Positions 895 to 63,934 of a DNA stretch of 64,000 nt are shown here, one piece after another (the first letter of the stretch is position 1; each line of letters opens with the position of its first letter). The notes beneath the pieces are model-generated. The model was not told the DNA's origin, made no database searches, and saw nothing but the letters and a program-made list of their open reading frames with translations. This DNA is from a virus. Lineage: Duplodnaviria > Caudoviricetes. A program made the position numbers and the translations under genes. The stretch covers positions 1-64,000 of the IMG/VR virus record IMGVR_UViG_3300033463_000095; one strand, given 5' to 3'.

Positions 895-1045
895 AATGTT
901 CAATGTAAAAAAGTGTAAATTGACACAATTTGACACATTGCGGCGCTTCCCTATTTAAACAGCCGGAAACGCGCCGCTTTACATGTCAATTGACATGTAA
1001 AATAAAGGGTTGCCGCAATTAAAAAAGTGTCAATTGACACTTTTA
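895..1045. repeat. TTGACA/TTTACA-rich palindromic element 1 around a GC-rich hairpin
   Basis: GCGGCGC(940-946)...GCGCCGC(971-977) stem; perfect palindromes TTTACATGTCAATTGACATGTAAA (978-1001) and AAAAGTGTCAATTGACACTTTT (1023-1044). Confidence 0.8.
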
Positions 1046-1047
1046 TT

Positions 1048-1212
1048 TTACGCAACTACAATATTATATTTTAGTGCTTTTGCGTTTGCGTTTCTTCCAC
1101 GCAATTTTTTATTAGTTTTACCTTTCTTTGCTAGGTTTTGTGCAGTTCTCATAAATTGTGCGGCGTTCTTATCAACTACCACCTTTTGTACTACATTTTT
1201 TCTTTTTGCCAT
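1048..1212 (-). CDS. 54-aa highly basic peptide
   Basis: MAKRKNVVQKVVVDKNAAQFMRTAQNLAKKGKTNKKLRGRNANAKALKYNIVVA; AGGAGAG RBS and promoter at 1246-1274. Below the ORF-track length cutoff. Confidence 0.6.
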   Translation of the reverse strand: MAKRKNVVQKVVVDKNAAQFMRTAQNLAKKGKTNKKLRGRNANAKALKYNIVVA

Positions 1213-1281
1213 TGTAATCACTCTCCTTTTCTTATTTACAATATTATTATAGCATACTTGAAATTATTAGTCAATAGTTTT

Positions 1282-1446
1282 TTAAAATATTTGTTGTAAA
1301 ATATATAAAGTAATAGGTATTGTTGTAGGTCTTAACCAAAAACCAATAAAATCTCCAACAAATTTAGAAATGTTTTCAATTTTTTGTTTTTTTATTTGAT
1401 ATTCTTGTTCTTGAGTTTTTAACCATAATTCAAATTCATTTTCCAT
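1282..1446 (-). CDS. 54-aa hypothetical protein
   Basis: MENEFELWLKTQEQEYQIKKQKIENISKFVGDFIGFWLRPTTIPITLYILQQIF; GAGGTG RBS and own promoter. Confidence 0.55.
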   Translation of the reverse strand: MENEFELWLKTQEQEYQIKKQKIENISKFVGDFIGFWLRPTTIPITLYILQQIF

Positions 1447-1525
1447 ACCATTCACCTCTTTTATATTATAAGTATATCACTTTTAAAATTATTTGTCAAT
1501 AGTTTTTTAATTAGTTATTCAATTT

Positions 1526-1717
1526 TTAAAATTGAATAACTAATTTTTCACAACCAAACTTTTCAACTACTAATTGATTAAGGGCTTGGATAGTCATATC
1601 TTTATTAATTCCACCCATAACCAATATGTAATCAGCATTATTCATATCACTTTTGTGAATATTCTTTGCGGCAATACTCATAGTTCCATTGTAATCTTTT
1701 TGTAAATATAATATCAT
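1526..1717 (-). CDS. Hypothetical early protein
   Basis: ORF track; RBS and own promoter. Confidence 0.6.
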   Translation of the reverse strand: MILYLQKDYNGTMSIAAKNIHKSDMNNADYILVMGGINKDMTIQALNQLVVEKFGCEKLVIQF

Positions 1718-1812
1718 TTCAATTCCCTCTTTCTTTCATTTCTTACATTATAATTATCTCATATTATTAATTATTTGTCAATAGTTTTTTTATTTTTTGT
1801 TGAGTTAGTTGA

Positions 1813-2022
1813 CTAATCAACTAACTCAACTTCTTCTATCCAAAAGTCCACTCTTTCAGGGAAGCAACAATTAATACTTTCTAAGAAATCTTTATCTTGT
1901 TTTAATTCTTCTATTGCTTTATTTGCTTGTCTTTTTGAAGAGTAGCAATATTTAAAAGTAAATTCTTCATAATCTTCATACTCTTCTCCATTATCATATT
2001 TTACTAAATAGATTTTTTTCAT
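1813..2022 (-). CDS. Small acidic hypothetical early protein
   Basis: ORF track (MKKIYLVKYDNGEEYEDY...); GAGGT RBS and own promoter. Confidence 0.65.
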   Translation of the reverse strand: MKKIYLVKYDNGEEYEDYEEFTFKYCYSSKRQANKAIEELKQDKDFLESINCCFPERVDFWIEEVELVD

Positions 2023-2087
2023 TTTAATTACCTCTCTTTCTTACATTATAAGTATATCATAGTATAGGTATTAAGTCAACACTTTTT

Positions 2088-2276
2088 TTAAAAATTTTTT
2101 ACTTTGTGTATTTTTGGAAGTTCTTGATAAAATGTTTCTCTATCAACAATTTCATTATTACAAAAGTAAACATAATGAGTAGAAACTTGAACGATAAAAA
2201 AACCCTTTCCATAATCACTTATCCAATTTTTTATTTGTAATCTTTTTAATAAATCTTTTACCATTTCTTTATTCAT
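2088..2276 (-). CDS. Hypothetical early protein
   Basis: ORF track; RBS and own promoter. Confidence 0.6.
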   Translation of the reverse strand: MNKEMVKDLLKRLQIKNWISDYGKGFFIVQVSTHYVYFCNNEIVDRETFYQELPKIHKVKNF

Positions 2277-61348: not shown

Positions 61349-61349
61349 T

Positions 61350-61802
61350 TTAAGACTCCTTATATAATTTACATATACCTTTAAAATGGTCTAATTCATG
61401 TTGTATAATATTTGACATGCGGCCGCCTTCAGCTATTTCTTTAGTAACACCATTTTCATCTGTGTATGTACACCATACTTTTTGAGCACGTTCTATTTCT
61501 TCATATTTTCCAGGGACACTTAAACATCCTTCTAAATATTTTTGACATCCGCGGCTACGGGTTATTACAGGATTAATCATAACTACAGTTTGATTAGCCC
61601 ACGAACAAACACATACACACACAGGCGTACCAATTTGTATTGCAGATAATCCTTTTCCAGCAGGGGCTGCCGCCAATGTATCTTTTAAATCTTGTATTAT
61701 TTGTTTTATTTCTTCTGTTGCTATATCTTCAACAGGTTGACTGATAGAAGATAATACTTTTCTATCTTCTTCATTATTATAATTTAAAATTGGTTTAATC
61801 AT
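61350..61802 (-). CDS. def: Peptide deformylase
   Basis: GKGLSAIQIG, EGCLSVP, QHELDH. Confidence 0.92.
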   Translation of the reverse strand: MIKPILNYNNEEDRKVLSSISQPVEDIATEEIKQIIQDLKDTLAAAPAGKGLSAIQIGTPVCVCVCSWANQTVVMINPVITRSRGCQKYLEGCLSVPGKYEEIERAQKVWCTYTDENGVTKEIAEGGRMSNIIQHELDHFKGICKLYKES

Positions 61803-61832
61803 TTATATACATTCCTTTCATTATATATAAAT

Positions 61833-61861
61833 ATTATACCATTATTTTTAAAATAAGTCAA
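61833..61861 (-). promoter_or_regulatory. sigmaA promoter upstream of def
   Basis: TTGACT-17-TATAAT with extended -10 TG. Confidence 0.8.
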
Positions 61862-62270
61862 TTCTATCTGTTATATAAGATTTTTTTATTAATTTTTTAC
61901 CATTTCTATCAGTTTCTTTAGCGTAATACTCTTCAAAAATAAGCAATATTTCTCTAATTCTTTTTAGGTTATCTATATCAATTTTTTTATTCTGATTCTC
62001 TTCTATCATATATTTTGTAATTCTTAAAAATAATTCTCTATTTATTCTTTCAATTAAATGAAGATAATCATGCGAGGTATCTTGTTTTAAAATAGCTCCA
62101 TTTCATAAGAGATATCCAGTTCCAAGCTTTTCTTTTTTACATTCTCTTTTAGGAATTATCAAATGATGAAAACTTAACTCTTCTGGTTTTTTAAAAGTAT
62201 ATCCCATAAAATCATAACCTAAATTTTTTATGTCATAGAGTTTTATCATTTCTTTTGTTATTTCTCTCAT
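61848..62270 (-). CDS. HNH-like protein (140 aa)
   Basis: LSFHHLIIPKREC...LW(TGA)NGAILKQDTSHDYLH gives an HH...N...H pattern. Confidence 0.55.
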
Positions 62271-62275
62271 AATGT

Positions 62276-63211
62276 TTATCTCCTATGAGATAATTTTTTA
62301 TTTTCAAAAGTTTCTAGTTCTGGAGTTATTTTATATACATGACCTTTATCATCAAAATCTACATCAACTCATCAACATGATTTATCATTAGCTAAACCCA
62401 TGCTGCGGCAATATGGTGTTTGGTCTTCTAAACAGCTAGTTTGAAAACAATGTGTTTTATCTTGTTTCATAAAAAAACTTTGATGAATATGACCTGTCTG
62501 TAAAATATCAGGTTTTTCATTAGATGGAATTGAGTCTAAATACTTTTGTAGTTTATATGACTTAGCATATGCACTTCCACCACTTCCATGAAATAATCTT
62601 ATTTTTAATTTTCCTATTTTTAAATCTGTTACATCAGGACCTAAATAAACGATATCATCTCTTTCTTTAGCTATTGATTTTAAAATTTCGCTACCTGCAG
62701 ACTTATACCATCAATCATCATGATTTCCTTGAATGGCATAGGTTTTTCCACTAAATTTAGGATATTTATCTATACAATATTGAACTTGTCCTTCATAAGA
62801 AGGTTCGCGCAATTCATATACTTGCTCTGGTCTATTACTTCTGCCATCTGTAAAATCTCCAGAATGAAGTATATGCTTAATTCCTTTATCTTCTGCTTTT
62901 GAATATAAATATTTTAATATGTCTACTCTATCATATTTACTTCCTAAATGAGTATCGCTAATCAATAATAATTTTAAATGTTCTAAATTATTAGGTAATT
63001 CATATATATCATTATTTTTTTGTGGACTTTTTCTAATAATAATTTCTTCGTTTGTAAAATCAATATTATATCCTTGTTGATTCATTAGAGTAATTAATCC
63101 TATAACTTCATAATCTTTTAATTCTAATTCCTCACATATTTTTAAAAATGATTTTTTCTTTTTAGCCATAGAATAAATTTTATCACATAATTCTTTTCTT
63201 TTTTCTTCCAT
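62276..63211 (-). CDS. Calcineurin-like metallophosphoesterase with N-terminal HTH-like region (311 aa)
   Basis: ISDTHLG, HSGDFTDG, GNHDDW(TGA)W, LFHG, TGHIH. Confidence 0.85.
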
Positions 63212-63282
63212 ATAAAATTTCCTCCTATTATAAAAATTTTATAACAAAAAAGAGATTAAGTAAAAAATACTTAACCTCCTTT

Positions 63283-63444
63283 TTATTTTATATTTCTACC
63301 TAATAAGCCTGTATAAAGAAAAGTAGCTCCAAACCATTGTAAAGATGTTGCTATATCTCCTTTAGTTATTATATTAACTATTAAACTTCCAAAAGCACCT
63401 GTAATCATAAGCGCTGGGAAAAATACTTTTAAAAAATTAGTCAT
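63283..63444 (-). CDS. 53-aa two-TM membrane protein
   Basis: MTNFLKVFFPALMITGAFGSLIVNI...LQWFGATFLYTGLLGRNIK; start overlaps the nrdG stop. Confidence 0.55.
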   Translation of the reverse strand: MTNFLKVFFPALMITGAFGSLIVNIITKGDIATSLQWFGATFLYTGLLGRNIK

Positions 63445-63934
63445 TCTCTACCTCTCCTGTTTTCATATTATATACATTTTGATTACGACTTCCGCGCCAT
63501 TTTAGTGTAATATCACGCTCTTCAAGAATAAAAGGACCTTCAATTAAATAATCTATATTTTTTAATATATAATCTGTATTATTTTCTTTTTGTAAATTTT
63601 CAAGAGTATATCCTGTTCAAATAACAATTTTAATATCAGGATATTTATCTTTTGCTTTGTATATAAGTTGTTTACAAAATTCTCTTTTATTATCAGTATC
63701 TAATGGTTCTCCACCAAGAATACTTAAATTCCTTTGTATCCCATTTGCGGCAATGGCATTTATAATAGTCTGAATTAATTCATCCTCATACCAAACATCT
63801 CCGCCTTCAAAATCTCATGCTTCTGGATTATGACATCCTTTACAGTGAAAATGACAACCTTGAAGGAATAAACTAACGCTCACTCCTTCTCCATTGACGA
63901 AATCATTGCCATTAATACCTGCGACCCTAATCAT
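63437..63934 (-). CDS. nrdG: Anaerobic ribonucleotide reductase activating enzyme (radical SAM)
   Basis: DFVNGEG...LFLQGCHFHCKGCHNPEAW(TGA)DF...LGGEP...WTGY...GSRNQ. Confidence 0.93.

Follow-up and report, generated by a model that had tools for sequence, protein, structure and literature searches.

The DNA examined here (hereafter the window) consists of the first 64,000 bases of the 72,016-base virus record IMGVR_UViG_3300033463_000095 (Caudoviricetes), a single contig estimated to be 49% complete. Throughout this AT-rich stretch (28.6% GC), a short asymmetric word, K-CCGC-M (K, G or T; M, A or C; reverse complement K-GCGG-M), is present at about four times the level that proteins and codon usage call for (z >15). 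The bias operates at the level of double-stranded DNA and is not translational. Close copies tend to be arranged as convergent pairs, and the excess is shared by eight related phage records, one sub-lineage favouring TGCGCA instead. We lean towards the view that a fixation bias toward the whole recognised duplex sequence preserves the word.

Over-representation of GCSGC and null models

The original prediction, made from the letters alone, claimed a strong excess of GCGGC/GCCGC (together GCSGC; S, G or C), with roughly 85 sites estimated by hand and fewer than 10 expected. Systematic counting bears this out. The window contains 88 sites spanning positions 940 to 63752; base composition predicts about 7.3, and 100 shuffles that preserve dinucleotides gave 6.79 ± 2.68 without once reaching 88. 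Both orientations are present, as had been noted (45 GCGGC, 43 GCCGC). In the complete 72-kb record, GCSGC is the top over-represented 5-mer relative to base composition (11.2-fold; 97 sites, 1.35 per kb). Longer words are also common: GCGGCAA is found 23 times and TTGCCGC 12 times in the window, and GCGGAA, for which high frequency had likewise been asserted, 22 times with 14 copies of TTCCGC.

Derivation of the sites from otherwise rare alanine codons was confirmed as well. Ala codons ending in G or C make up 15% overall; 64 of the 85 coding GCSGC sites of the record are in-frame Ala-Ala pairs, and among 137 such pairs GCG-GCA and GCC-GCA occur 25 times each (about 5.6 and 3.4 expected from codon usage).

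To separate the word from its coding context, synonymous codons were shuffled within each gene, so that proteins and the codon usage of each gene were kept. TGA and TGG were kept separate in all codon shuffles, which makes the outcomes independent of the meaning of TGA. Under this codon-aware null, coding GCSGC is expected 26.3 ± 4.9 times and observed 85 times (z 12). The expectation rises to 47.8 ± 4.2 if the first base of the next codon is fixed in addition, and to 79.0 if the next two bases are fixed. The original prediction had looked to a dicodon-aware model for loss of the enrichment. The excess of GCSGC is indeed absorbed there, but that of K-CCGC-M (126 vs 89.8) and of TGCSGCA (36 vs 20.4) persists. 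A null that keeps dicodons cannot decide the matter, because the signal is itself a dicodon-level pattern and is absorbed by construction. The order-3 Markov expectation for GCSGC gives a ratio of just 1.27; the signal therefore resides in words shorter than five bases, which pointed to a 4-mer core.

The enriched unit

The codon-aware null ranks TGCGG/CCGCA (116 vs 36), GCSGC, GGCGG/CCGCC and GCGGA/TCCGC highest. The 4-mer common to them is CCGC/GCGG, observed 195 times against 86 expected, or 199 against 87 in another of the codon-aware counts. Its flanks are selective on both sides. GCGG preceded by T or G is enriched 2.5-3.1-fold, and preceded by A or C it stays at 0.84-0.98; CCGC followed by A or C reaches 4.6-5.5-fold, and followed by T 0.77. 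The 6-mer K-CCGC-M combining the favoured flanks occurs 126 times against 30.6 (codon-aware), and the core with other flanks remains at about 1.0-1.3-fold. The unit that is enriched is K-CCGC-M, a duplex 6-mer, and not GCSGC; it accounts for nearly the whole excess, and the Ala-Ala dicodons GCG-GCA and GCC-GCA are its most visible face.

The word is also favoured in extended versions, namely TGCGG(C/A)AA and the palindromic TGC-S-GCA (6-7-fold), and the GCGGCAA and GCGGAA counted above are instances of these. The non-palindromic TGCGGAA/TTCCGCA is raised 4.6-fold beside the palindrome, the minimal unit being asymmetric.

Excess at the level of DNA

CCGC occurs 8, 53 and 14 times in coding frames 0, 1 and 2 (codon-aware expectations 2.6, 17.9 and 1.9), and GCGG 75 and 44 times in frames 0 and 1 (41 and 21 expected). 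This pattern of frame and orientation is repeated in three relatives. Since every possible frame is enriched, the free synonymous base can fall on any of the word's four positions. The word is completed by otherwise rare G/C-ending codons, as in GCG-GC, GCC-GC, TCC-GC, GGC-GG and xxC-CGC (hyphens mark codon borders). At four-fold degenerate sites in the context C(N)GC, observed/expected ratios are 0.62 for A, 4.1 for C, 1.6 for G and 0.96 for T. CCGC is enriched 3.85-fold at Ser/Thr/Pro-Ala junctions and GCGG 3.4-fold at Gly-Gly. No rise was detected for CCGG, CGGG, GCGC and GGGC, words of equal GC content.

The bias is symmetric with respect to strand. For the 16 NGCGGN words, enrichment on the coding strand is correlated with that of the respective reverse complements on the same strand (r 0.75, p 7e-4). 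Among 4-mers composed of G and C, CCGC/GCGG is the most frequent in the 5.5 kb of intergenic DNA (19 vs 3-4.6). Survival of codon shuffling, presence in all frames and both orientations and the non-coding copies together uphold the earlier proposal of a DNA-level signal that is not a matter of amino-acid composition or plain codon usage.

Convergent pairs

Close sites are mostly convergent, 5'-GCGG...CCGC-3', an arrangement that reads alike on both strands. In six genomes pooled, 222 pairs at 9-60 nt have this order and 77 the opposite one (p 2e-17), and the ratio of the two falls from 3.3 at 9-30 nt to 2.65 at 31-60 nt and 1.0 beyond 600 nt. In coding DNA alone there are 138 convergent pairs against 49, where amino-acid-preserving shuffles predict 1.42:1 (p 2e-5). 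The window itself holds 32 convergent and 8 divergent pairs at 4-60 nt. Start-to-start distances peak at 7 (47 cases) and at 52-55 (35 cases, vs about 3 per distance nearby), these cases not all being independent, as some are orthologous and some lie in tRNA or hairpin regions. Such pairing would fit a factor that reads two inverted copies. Formation of hairpins by the pairs was considered and rejected, since the arms have no extended complementarity in coding DNA. Regular spacing of sites was rejected too: the coefficient of variation (1.17-1.31) corresponds to slight clustering, with no periodicity.

Related phages, candidate hosts and controls

A capsid search yielded 15 IMG/VR loci and three contigs in bins of metagenome-assembled genomes (MAGs), and whole records were then compared. 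Codon-aware counts of CCGC/GCGG are 307 vs 130 in G001, 369 vs 151 in G003, 105 vs 42 in G005, 62 vs 29 in P006 and 204 vs 102 in P007. In all five records CCGC/GCGG is the first or near-first 4-mer, with an excess of about 2-2.5-fold. They are 72-75% identical to the window, which means that synonymous sites are near saturation.

A sub-lineage formed by G002 and G004 has another leading word, GCGC, which appears as TGCGCAA. There TGCGCA is enriched 3.8-fold and TGC-S-GCA 1.8-fold, as against 1.1-fold and 6.0-fold in the window's group, so that the favoured palindromes of the two sub-lineages differ by one central base pair. Gene content of the sub-lineages differs in many points; scanning of these differences (RNA ligase, serine hydroxymethyltransferase, amidases, unknown proteins) gave no DNA-binding candidate for a lineage-specific gene behind the choice between CCGC and GCGC.

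In one scan of a genome collection for hosts, two MAG bins were the only ones with related phage contigs, and these bins are regarded as candidate hosts. The comparison with the host k-mer spectrum that had been proposed earlier was run on these candidate bins. With its phage contig set aside, bin G006 (27% GC, standard code) is depleted for CCGC/GCGG (32 vs 91), and bin G007 is neutral (109 vs 111). Among control phages, counts are 56 vs 49 in Enterococcus phage EF1, which has a related capsid, and 11 vs 18 in Clostridioides difficile phage phiCD211; a weak trend is seen in the distant, TAG-recoded phAss-1 (193 vs 156). The excess is a trait of this phage clade, not of the candidate hosts, of AT-rich Firmicutes or of their phages generally.

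Bin G006 also avoids AGCT, ACGT, GATC and GGATG. It carries two adjacent m5C methylase genes (C4:71468-73998) that could constitute an AciI-like system. A 20-kb piece of the same bin (L059, contig C7) has open reading frame (ORF) coverage of 18-24%, whether or not TGA is taken as sense.

Turnover of sites

In orthologous codon alignments, the probability of a site in one genome is 0.40-0.59 given a site in the other, vs 0.11-0.22 otherwise. Two trios of relatives (93-96% identical) allowed substitutions to be polarised. The frequency per opportunity is 3.9% for word-creating transitions and 1.1% for other transitions from A/T to G/C (W>S; n=4, p 0.03), and the rate of word loss is normal, matching the rate for other G/C bases. 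Excess gain thus seems to maintain the word. An A:T>C:G flux from CAGC was rejected as its source, all polarised gains seen being transitions. The surplus of polarised W>S over S>W transitions (215 vs 86) was taken as a parsimony artefact of the distant outgroup and was unused for direction.

Proposed explanation

The clade picks otherwise rare G/C-ending synonymous codons at just those places where K-CCGC-M is thereby completed, and a fixation bias toward the whole word is the more likely reason. Such a preference could stem either from selection for dense recognition sites of a sequence-specific DNA-acting factor travelling with the lineage or from a word-directed repair bias, and the paired inverted copies may indicate a factor that reads two copies. 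A more specific version can be put forward only tentatively. K-CCGC-M, preferentially in convergent pairs spaced by about 7 or about 52-55 bp, might be the recognition element of a lineage-encoded machine, for instance a dimeric DNA-binding, nicking or priming factor that works genome-wide in replication, recombination or protection of phage DNA. In the sister lineage its specificity would have moved by one base pair, from TGC-S-GCA to TGCGCA. If true, phages would have a genome-wide "self" signal of a new kind, the viral equivalent of highly iterated palindromes (HIPs) or Chi.

Several observations weigh against a fixation bias and a dedicated factor. Genes of families PF00145, PF01555, PF02086, PF03852 (Vsr) and PF01702 (TGT/DpdA) are absent from five related phage records (G000-G004; G001 is 97% complete), and no word-reading protein was found in the phages. 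Odds ratios of site retention are 3.5-7, compared with 2.2-6.6 for control G/C-ending four-fold sites; turnover is near the neutral rate, and selection on particular positions is consequently unsupported. The substitution sample is tiny, four gains and two losses being too few to part mutation from fixation bias. Part of the asymmetry in pair order, corresponding to the predicted 1.42:1, stems from protein sequences. Finally, hosts are known just as two candidate MAG bins, which may be mis-binned.

Comparison with highly iterated palindromes

The closest analogue of K-CCGC-M appears to be the HIP family of cyanobacteria, which comprises HIP1 (GCGATCGC) and the alternative HIPs GGCGCC, rCCGGy and GCsGC, the last in Cyanothece PCC 7822 (PMC4390886, PMC5861425). 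GCsGC is the most over-represented palindromic 5-mer of that organism, which possesses GCsGC-specific methylases (Elhai 2015, PMC4390886). HIPs reach 1000-2000 copies per Mb, occupy non-preferred codons and are replaced by other words in some lineages (PMC4390886). HIP1 is argued to be under selection, with its function unknown (PMC5861425), and selection versus biased creation is debated.

Likeness extends over several features. In both cases a short GC-rich word lies far above codon-aware expectation at about 1-2 per kb throughout coding DNA, uses non-preferred codons and is hence rarer in highly expressed genes, and the preferred word changes between related lineages; one alternative HIP is itself GCsGC. 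On the other hand, HIPs reside in cellular chromosomes and the present word in phages, its minimal unit is asymmetric (TGCGGAA is as enriched as TGC-S-GCA), no cognate methyltransferase is encoded in G000-G004, and retention of sites resembles that of neutral controls. In place of kilobase periodicity, convergent pairs at 7 and about 52-55 nt are observed here.

A literature search for over-representation of CCGC in phages gave nothing relevant. Study of words over-used against codon preference (Chi, uptake sequences, the FtsK orienting polar sequences KOPS, HIP1) has more than once opened the way to DNA-handling machinery. The phage-borne case is strong (about 4-fold), lineage-specific, changing between sister lineages and not copied from candidate hosts, and its sites show an unexpected pairwise geometry. 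Genomes of 70-145 kb with many metagenomic relatives offer a tractable system for the question of selection versus biased repair, which has been open for HIP1 for three decades. The word also skews the k-mer signatures by which AT-rich, stop-codon-recoded phages of gut and rumen are binned and their hosts predicted.

Alternative explanations

Near-neutral turnover of the sites, with word loss like that of other G/C bases, is what a neutral context-dependent mutation bias would produce: phage replication or repair would make W>S errors more often in near-cognate contexts, and the word would drift up without function. The phage machinery comprises a DnaE-type Pol III alpha and no recognisable mismatch repair. 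The excess is strand-symmetric, frame-independent, present in non-coding DNA, lineage-specific and gone under strong codon selection, all of which suits this explanation. We nevertheless regard it as rather unlikely. The excess arises whichever position is free and involves flanks on both sides, so several contexts must converge on one 6-mer; equally GC-rich neighbour words are not raised, and the order of convergent pairs is unexpected from point mutation. Bias of translational origin, with tRNA or ribosome effects preferring GCG or GCC ahead of Ala codons, is hardly credible. It would suit the two thirds of GCSGC sites that are in-frame Ala-Ala dicodons, mostly with GCA as second codon, and it is contradicted by the excess in all frames, both orientations and non-coding DNA, by flanks that are symmetric under reverse complementation, and by lack of the excess in candidate hosts, control phages and the most highly expressed genes.

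The word may be recognised by a DNA modification enzyme, which either the host or an unrecognised phage gene would encode, with sites accumulating as proposed for HIPs. This we consider improbable, although the methylases that accompany GCsGC in Cyanothece PCC 7822, the match between HIP densities and the 1350 sites per Mb found here, the two glycosyltransferases in the DNA-metabolism module of the phage and the paired m5C methylases of bin G006, which itself avoids CCGC, all fit. Methylase, Vsr and TGT genes are missing from the five phage records, neighbours of the word by very-short-patch (VSP) type transitions are undepleted (CTGC/GCAG 349 vs 356, CCAC/GTGG 207 vs 183), and strong avoidance of GATC argues against global modification of the DNA. 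The original prediction had named the GCNGC target of SPbeta-type methylases in particular. This did not hold: PF00145, PF01555 and PF02086 are lacking, and GCWGC (W, A or T) and GCSGC move in opposite directions, the former being depleted (79 vs 117, z -8 to -9; 0.65-0.70-fold) and the latter enriched 2.6-4.2-fold, so that GCNGC is not the unit. In E. coli, CCWGG and related words are over-represented through VSP repair. That case resembles ours in a strand-symmetric excess of a short word that affects all frames and originates in DNA; here, however, Vsr and m5C methylase are absent, neighbours are undepleted and gains occur at several positions of the word. A VSP-repair word bias was rejected on the lack of PF03852 in the phages and the undrained CTGC/GCAG and CCAC/GTGG.

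By-product of restriction avoidance, in which shunning of GCWGC (TseI/BbvI-type) or CAGC/GCTG drives Ala-Ala and similar pairs into GCS-GCN, seems to us decidedly improbable. Depletion of GCWGC, CAGC/GCTG (231 vs 326) and GATC (66 vs 145 in the window's genome, 10 vs 226 in its relative G002) proves that some words are avoided. GTAC and the Shine-Dalgarno-like GGAGG/AGGA are depleted as well, and together with GATC this looks like ordinary avoidance of restriction sites and internal Shine-Dalgarno sequences. Loss of A from C(N)GC should, however, lift C, G and T about 1.2-1.3-fold each, at odds with the values seen for C and T; 73 GCW-GCN Ala-Ala pairs persist; and the word is equally enriched at Ser/Thr/Pro-Ala and Gly-Gly, where GCWGC is impossible. 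Avoidance of GCWGC, which had been suggested as a partial cause, is real and can account for no more than a part of the enrichment. Restriction-site avoidance by phages (e.g. of GATC) is a lineage-specific bias of DNA at synonymous sites, and GATC, GTAC and GCWGC are depleted in these same genomes. The sign is reversed for K-CCGC-M, which is enriched in the phages and avoided by one candidate host bin.

Mimicry of Chi was the leading idea of the original prediction: the word would equal the Chi of host AddAB/RecBCD and would have accumulated to protect or recombine linear phage DNA. Chi words of Firmicutes include AGCGG in Bacillus subtilis and GAAGCGG in Staphylococcus aureus; that of E. coli is GCTGGTGG. 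K-CCGC-M is GC-rich and asymmetric, holds GCGG and resembles Firmicute Chi, and the phage has RuvC-like and Mre11-like genes and no obvious Gam. Chi-rich phages are known: in lambdoid phages of this kind (LLS), Chi is oriented 20 vs 3 and 32 vs 0 and clustered terminally (PMC12315714). Like theirs, the present word is a GC-rich asymmetric oligomer far above chance in a phage genome, with about one copy per 0.3-2 kb. Their Chi is oriented and gathered near one end, whereas here orientations are equal everywhere, and four genomes scanned in 10 bins show no polarity. In genes of both strands the asymmetric 7-mer is raised both ways (e.g. 28 vs 5.3 and 23 vs 2.2 in G000), known Chi words are not enriched (AGCGG 21 vs 24.9, 0.84-fold; CCGCT 6 vs 7.8, 0.77-fold; GAAGCGG 1 vs 3.3; GCGCGTG 0), and candidate host bins are depleted (G006) or neutral (G007) for the word. 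These results leave Chi mimicry against AddAB very unlikely.

Distribution along the window and genome context

Two stretches free of GCSGC had been pointed out (11430-14760 and 43130-47230). They are real, and the exact limits are 11175-14766 and 43124-47237. The first, in the capsid region, arises because no Ala codon of the decoration-like and major capsid genes ends in G or C. More generally, the word is absent from highly expressed virion genes because codon selection excludes such codons from them, and the gaps are ordinary codon selection in abundant proteins. The tape-measure-like ORF has 242 Ala codons, 40 of them G/C-ending, and includes a run of seven GCCGC sites (28114-28817). Positions of these and other features are given in Table 1.

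Table 1. Word-related features and recognisable genes of the window
Feature	Position	Strand	Details
K-CCGC-M / K-GCGG-M field	939..63805		118 copies; on + strand 47 CCGC sense, 71 GCGG sense; 118 vs 11.4 ± 3.4
Non-coding hairpin	930..989	+	arms GCGGCGC (940-946) and GCGCCGC (971-977); -21.8 kcal/mol, z -4.25
Second non-coding hairpin	2479..2516	+	same GCGGCGC/GCGCCGC arms; -21.2 kcal/mol, z -1.9
Sigma factor gene	5242-6336		
Large terminase gene	7550-9304		
Portal gene	9787-11427		
Decoration-like and major capsid genes	12909..14506	+	0/42 Ala codons G/C-ending (0/7, 0/35); word-free
Major capsid gene	13460-14506		capsid homology
308-aa virion gene	18402..19328	+	0/34 Ala codons G/C-ending; word-free
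Intrinsic terminator	19336..19372	+	GCGGC (19346-19350) atop stem, then T run; -18.7 kcal/mol, z -4.7
2621-aa tape-measure-like ORF	21529..29394	+	17 in-frame TGA; 30 CCGC/GCGG sites vs 14.7 expected
Convergent pair, distance 7 (GCGG-N3-CCGC)	28108..28118		others start at 28651, 32665, 43076, 50187
2790-aa ORF	29472..37844	+	27 in-frame TGA; 33 CCGC/GCGG sites vs 12.9
726-aa TGA-free gene	43558..45738	+	1/33 Ala codons G/C-ending; bulk of second gap
Nine loci, pair spacing 51-58	starts 4892, 28669, 30243, 46917, 48183, 52126, 55043, 59373, 63747		
Convergent pair, distance 52	48183..48238		orthologous pair in relative G003
RuvC-like resolvase gene	54625-55137		
Two glycosyltransferase genes	55125-56856		within DNA-metabolism module

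Of the four non-coding copies listed by the original prediction (1013, 2358, 19346, 47236), three are non-coding, at 1012, 19346 and 47237, and the fourth, at 2360, falls inside a doubtful ORF of 72 aa. The copy at 19346, assigned there to a terminator loop, does form the apex of an intrinsic-terminator hairpin. The intergenic stretch of about 60 nt at 46917-46975 is flanked by GCGGGAAG and CTTCCGC. Nested internal complementarity is discernible in it by eye, and it may fold as a long hairpin or represent a small structured RNA.

TGA is a sense codon in the window: if it is read through, ORF coverage increases from 72% to 93% and fragments merge into closely packed genes (5242-63934). CGG is never used in curated genes, and CTG is used three times. 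No tRNA genes were found in the window; relatives G001 and G003 have 15 and 24, respectively, and none of these carries a UCA anticodon (ARAGORN). A tie between the word and TGA recoding was rejected, as use of TGA per gene does not follow CCGC density (rho -0.07), observed/expected ratios are about 2.3 with or without TGA, and relative G005, apparently unrecoded, is still enriched.

Further recognisable genes encode thymidine kinase, dUTPase, peptide deformylase and the Mre11-like nuclease. Past the end of the window (63927-72015 of the genome), NrdD and DnaE (Pol III alpha) genes are each represented by two ORFs, and an ORF for a NUMOD3 endonuclease separates the two parts of DnaE, an arrangement suggestive of introns or inteins that carry homing endonucleases. 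Serine hydroxymethyltransferase is encoded by G001 (L022 10599-11561) and G003 (100019-101236) and not by G002/G004; together with the two glycosyltransferases of the DNA-metabolism module it might hint at modified pyrimidines. G003 also contains near-identical stretches of about 70 nt inside ORFs at positions 3343 and 123716, close to both ends of its 125.7-kb record. These could represent paralogous genes or terminal redundancy.

Two words without GC richness are over-represented too, in both sub-lineages, in coding DNA of G000, G001, G003, G002 and G004 (codon-aware). CAATAG/CTATTG occurs 416 times vs 238, and CAAGAG/CTCTTG 246 times vs 128, the latter extended to TCAAGAG/CTCTTGA.

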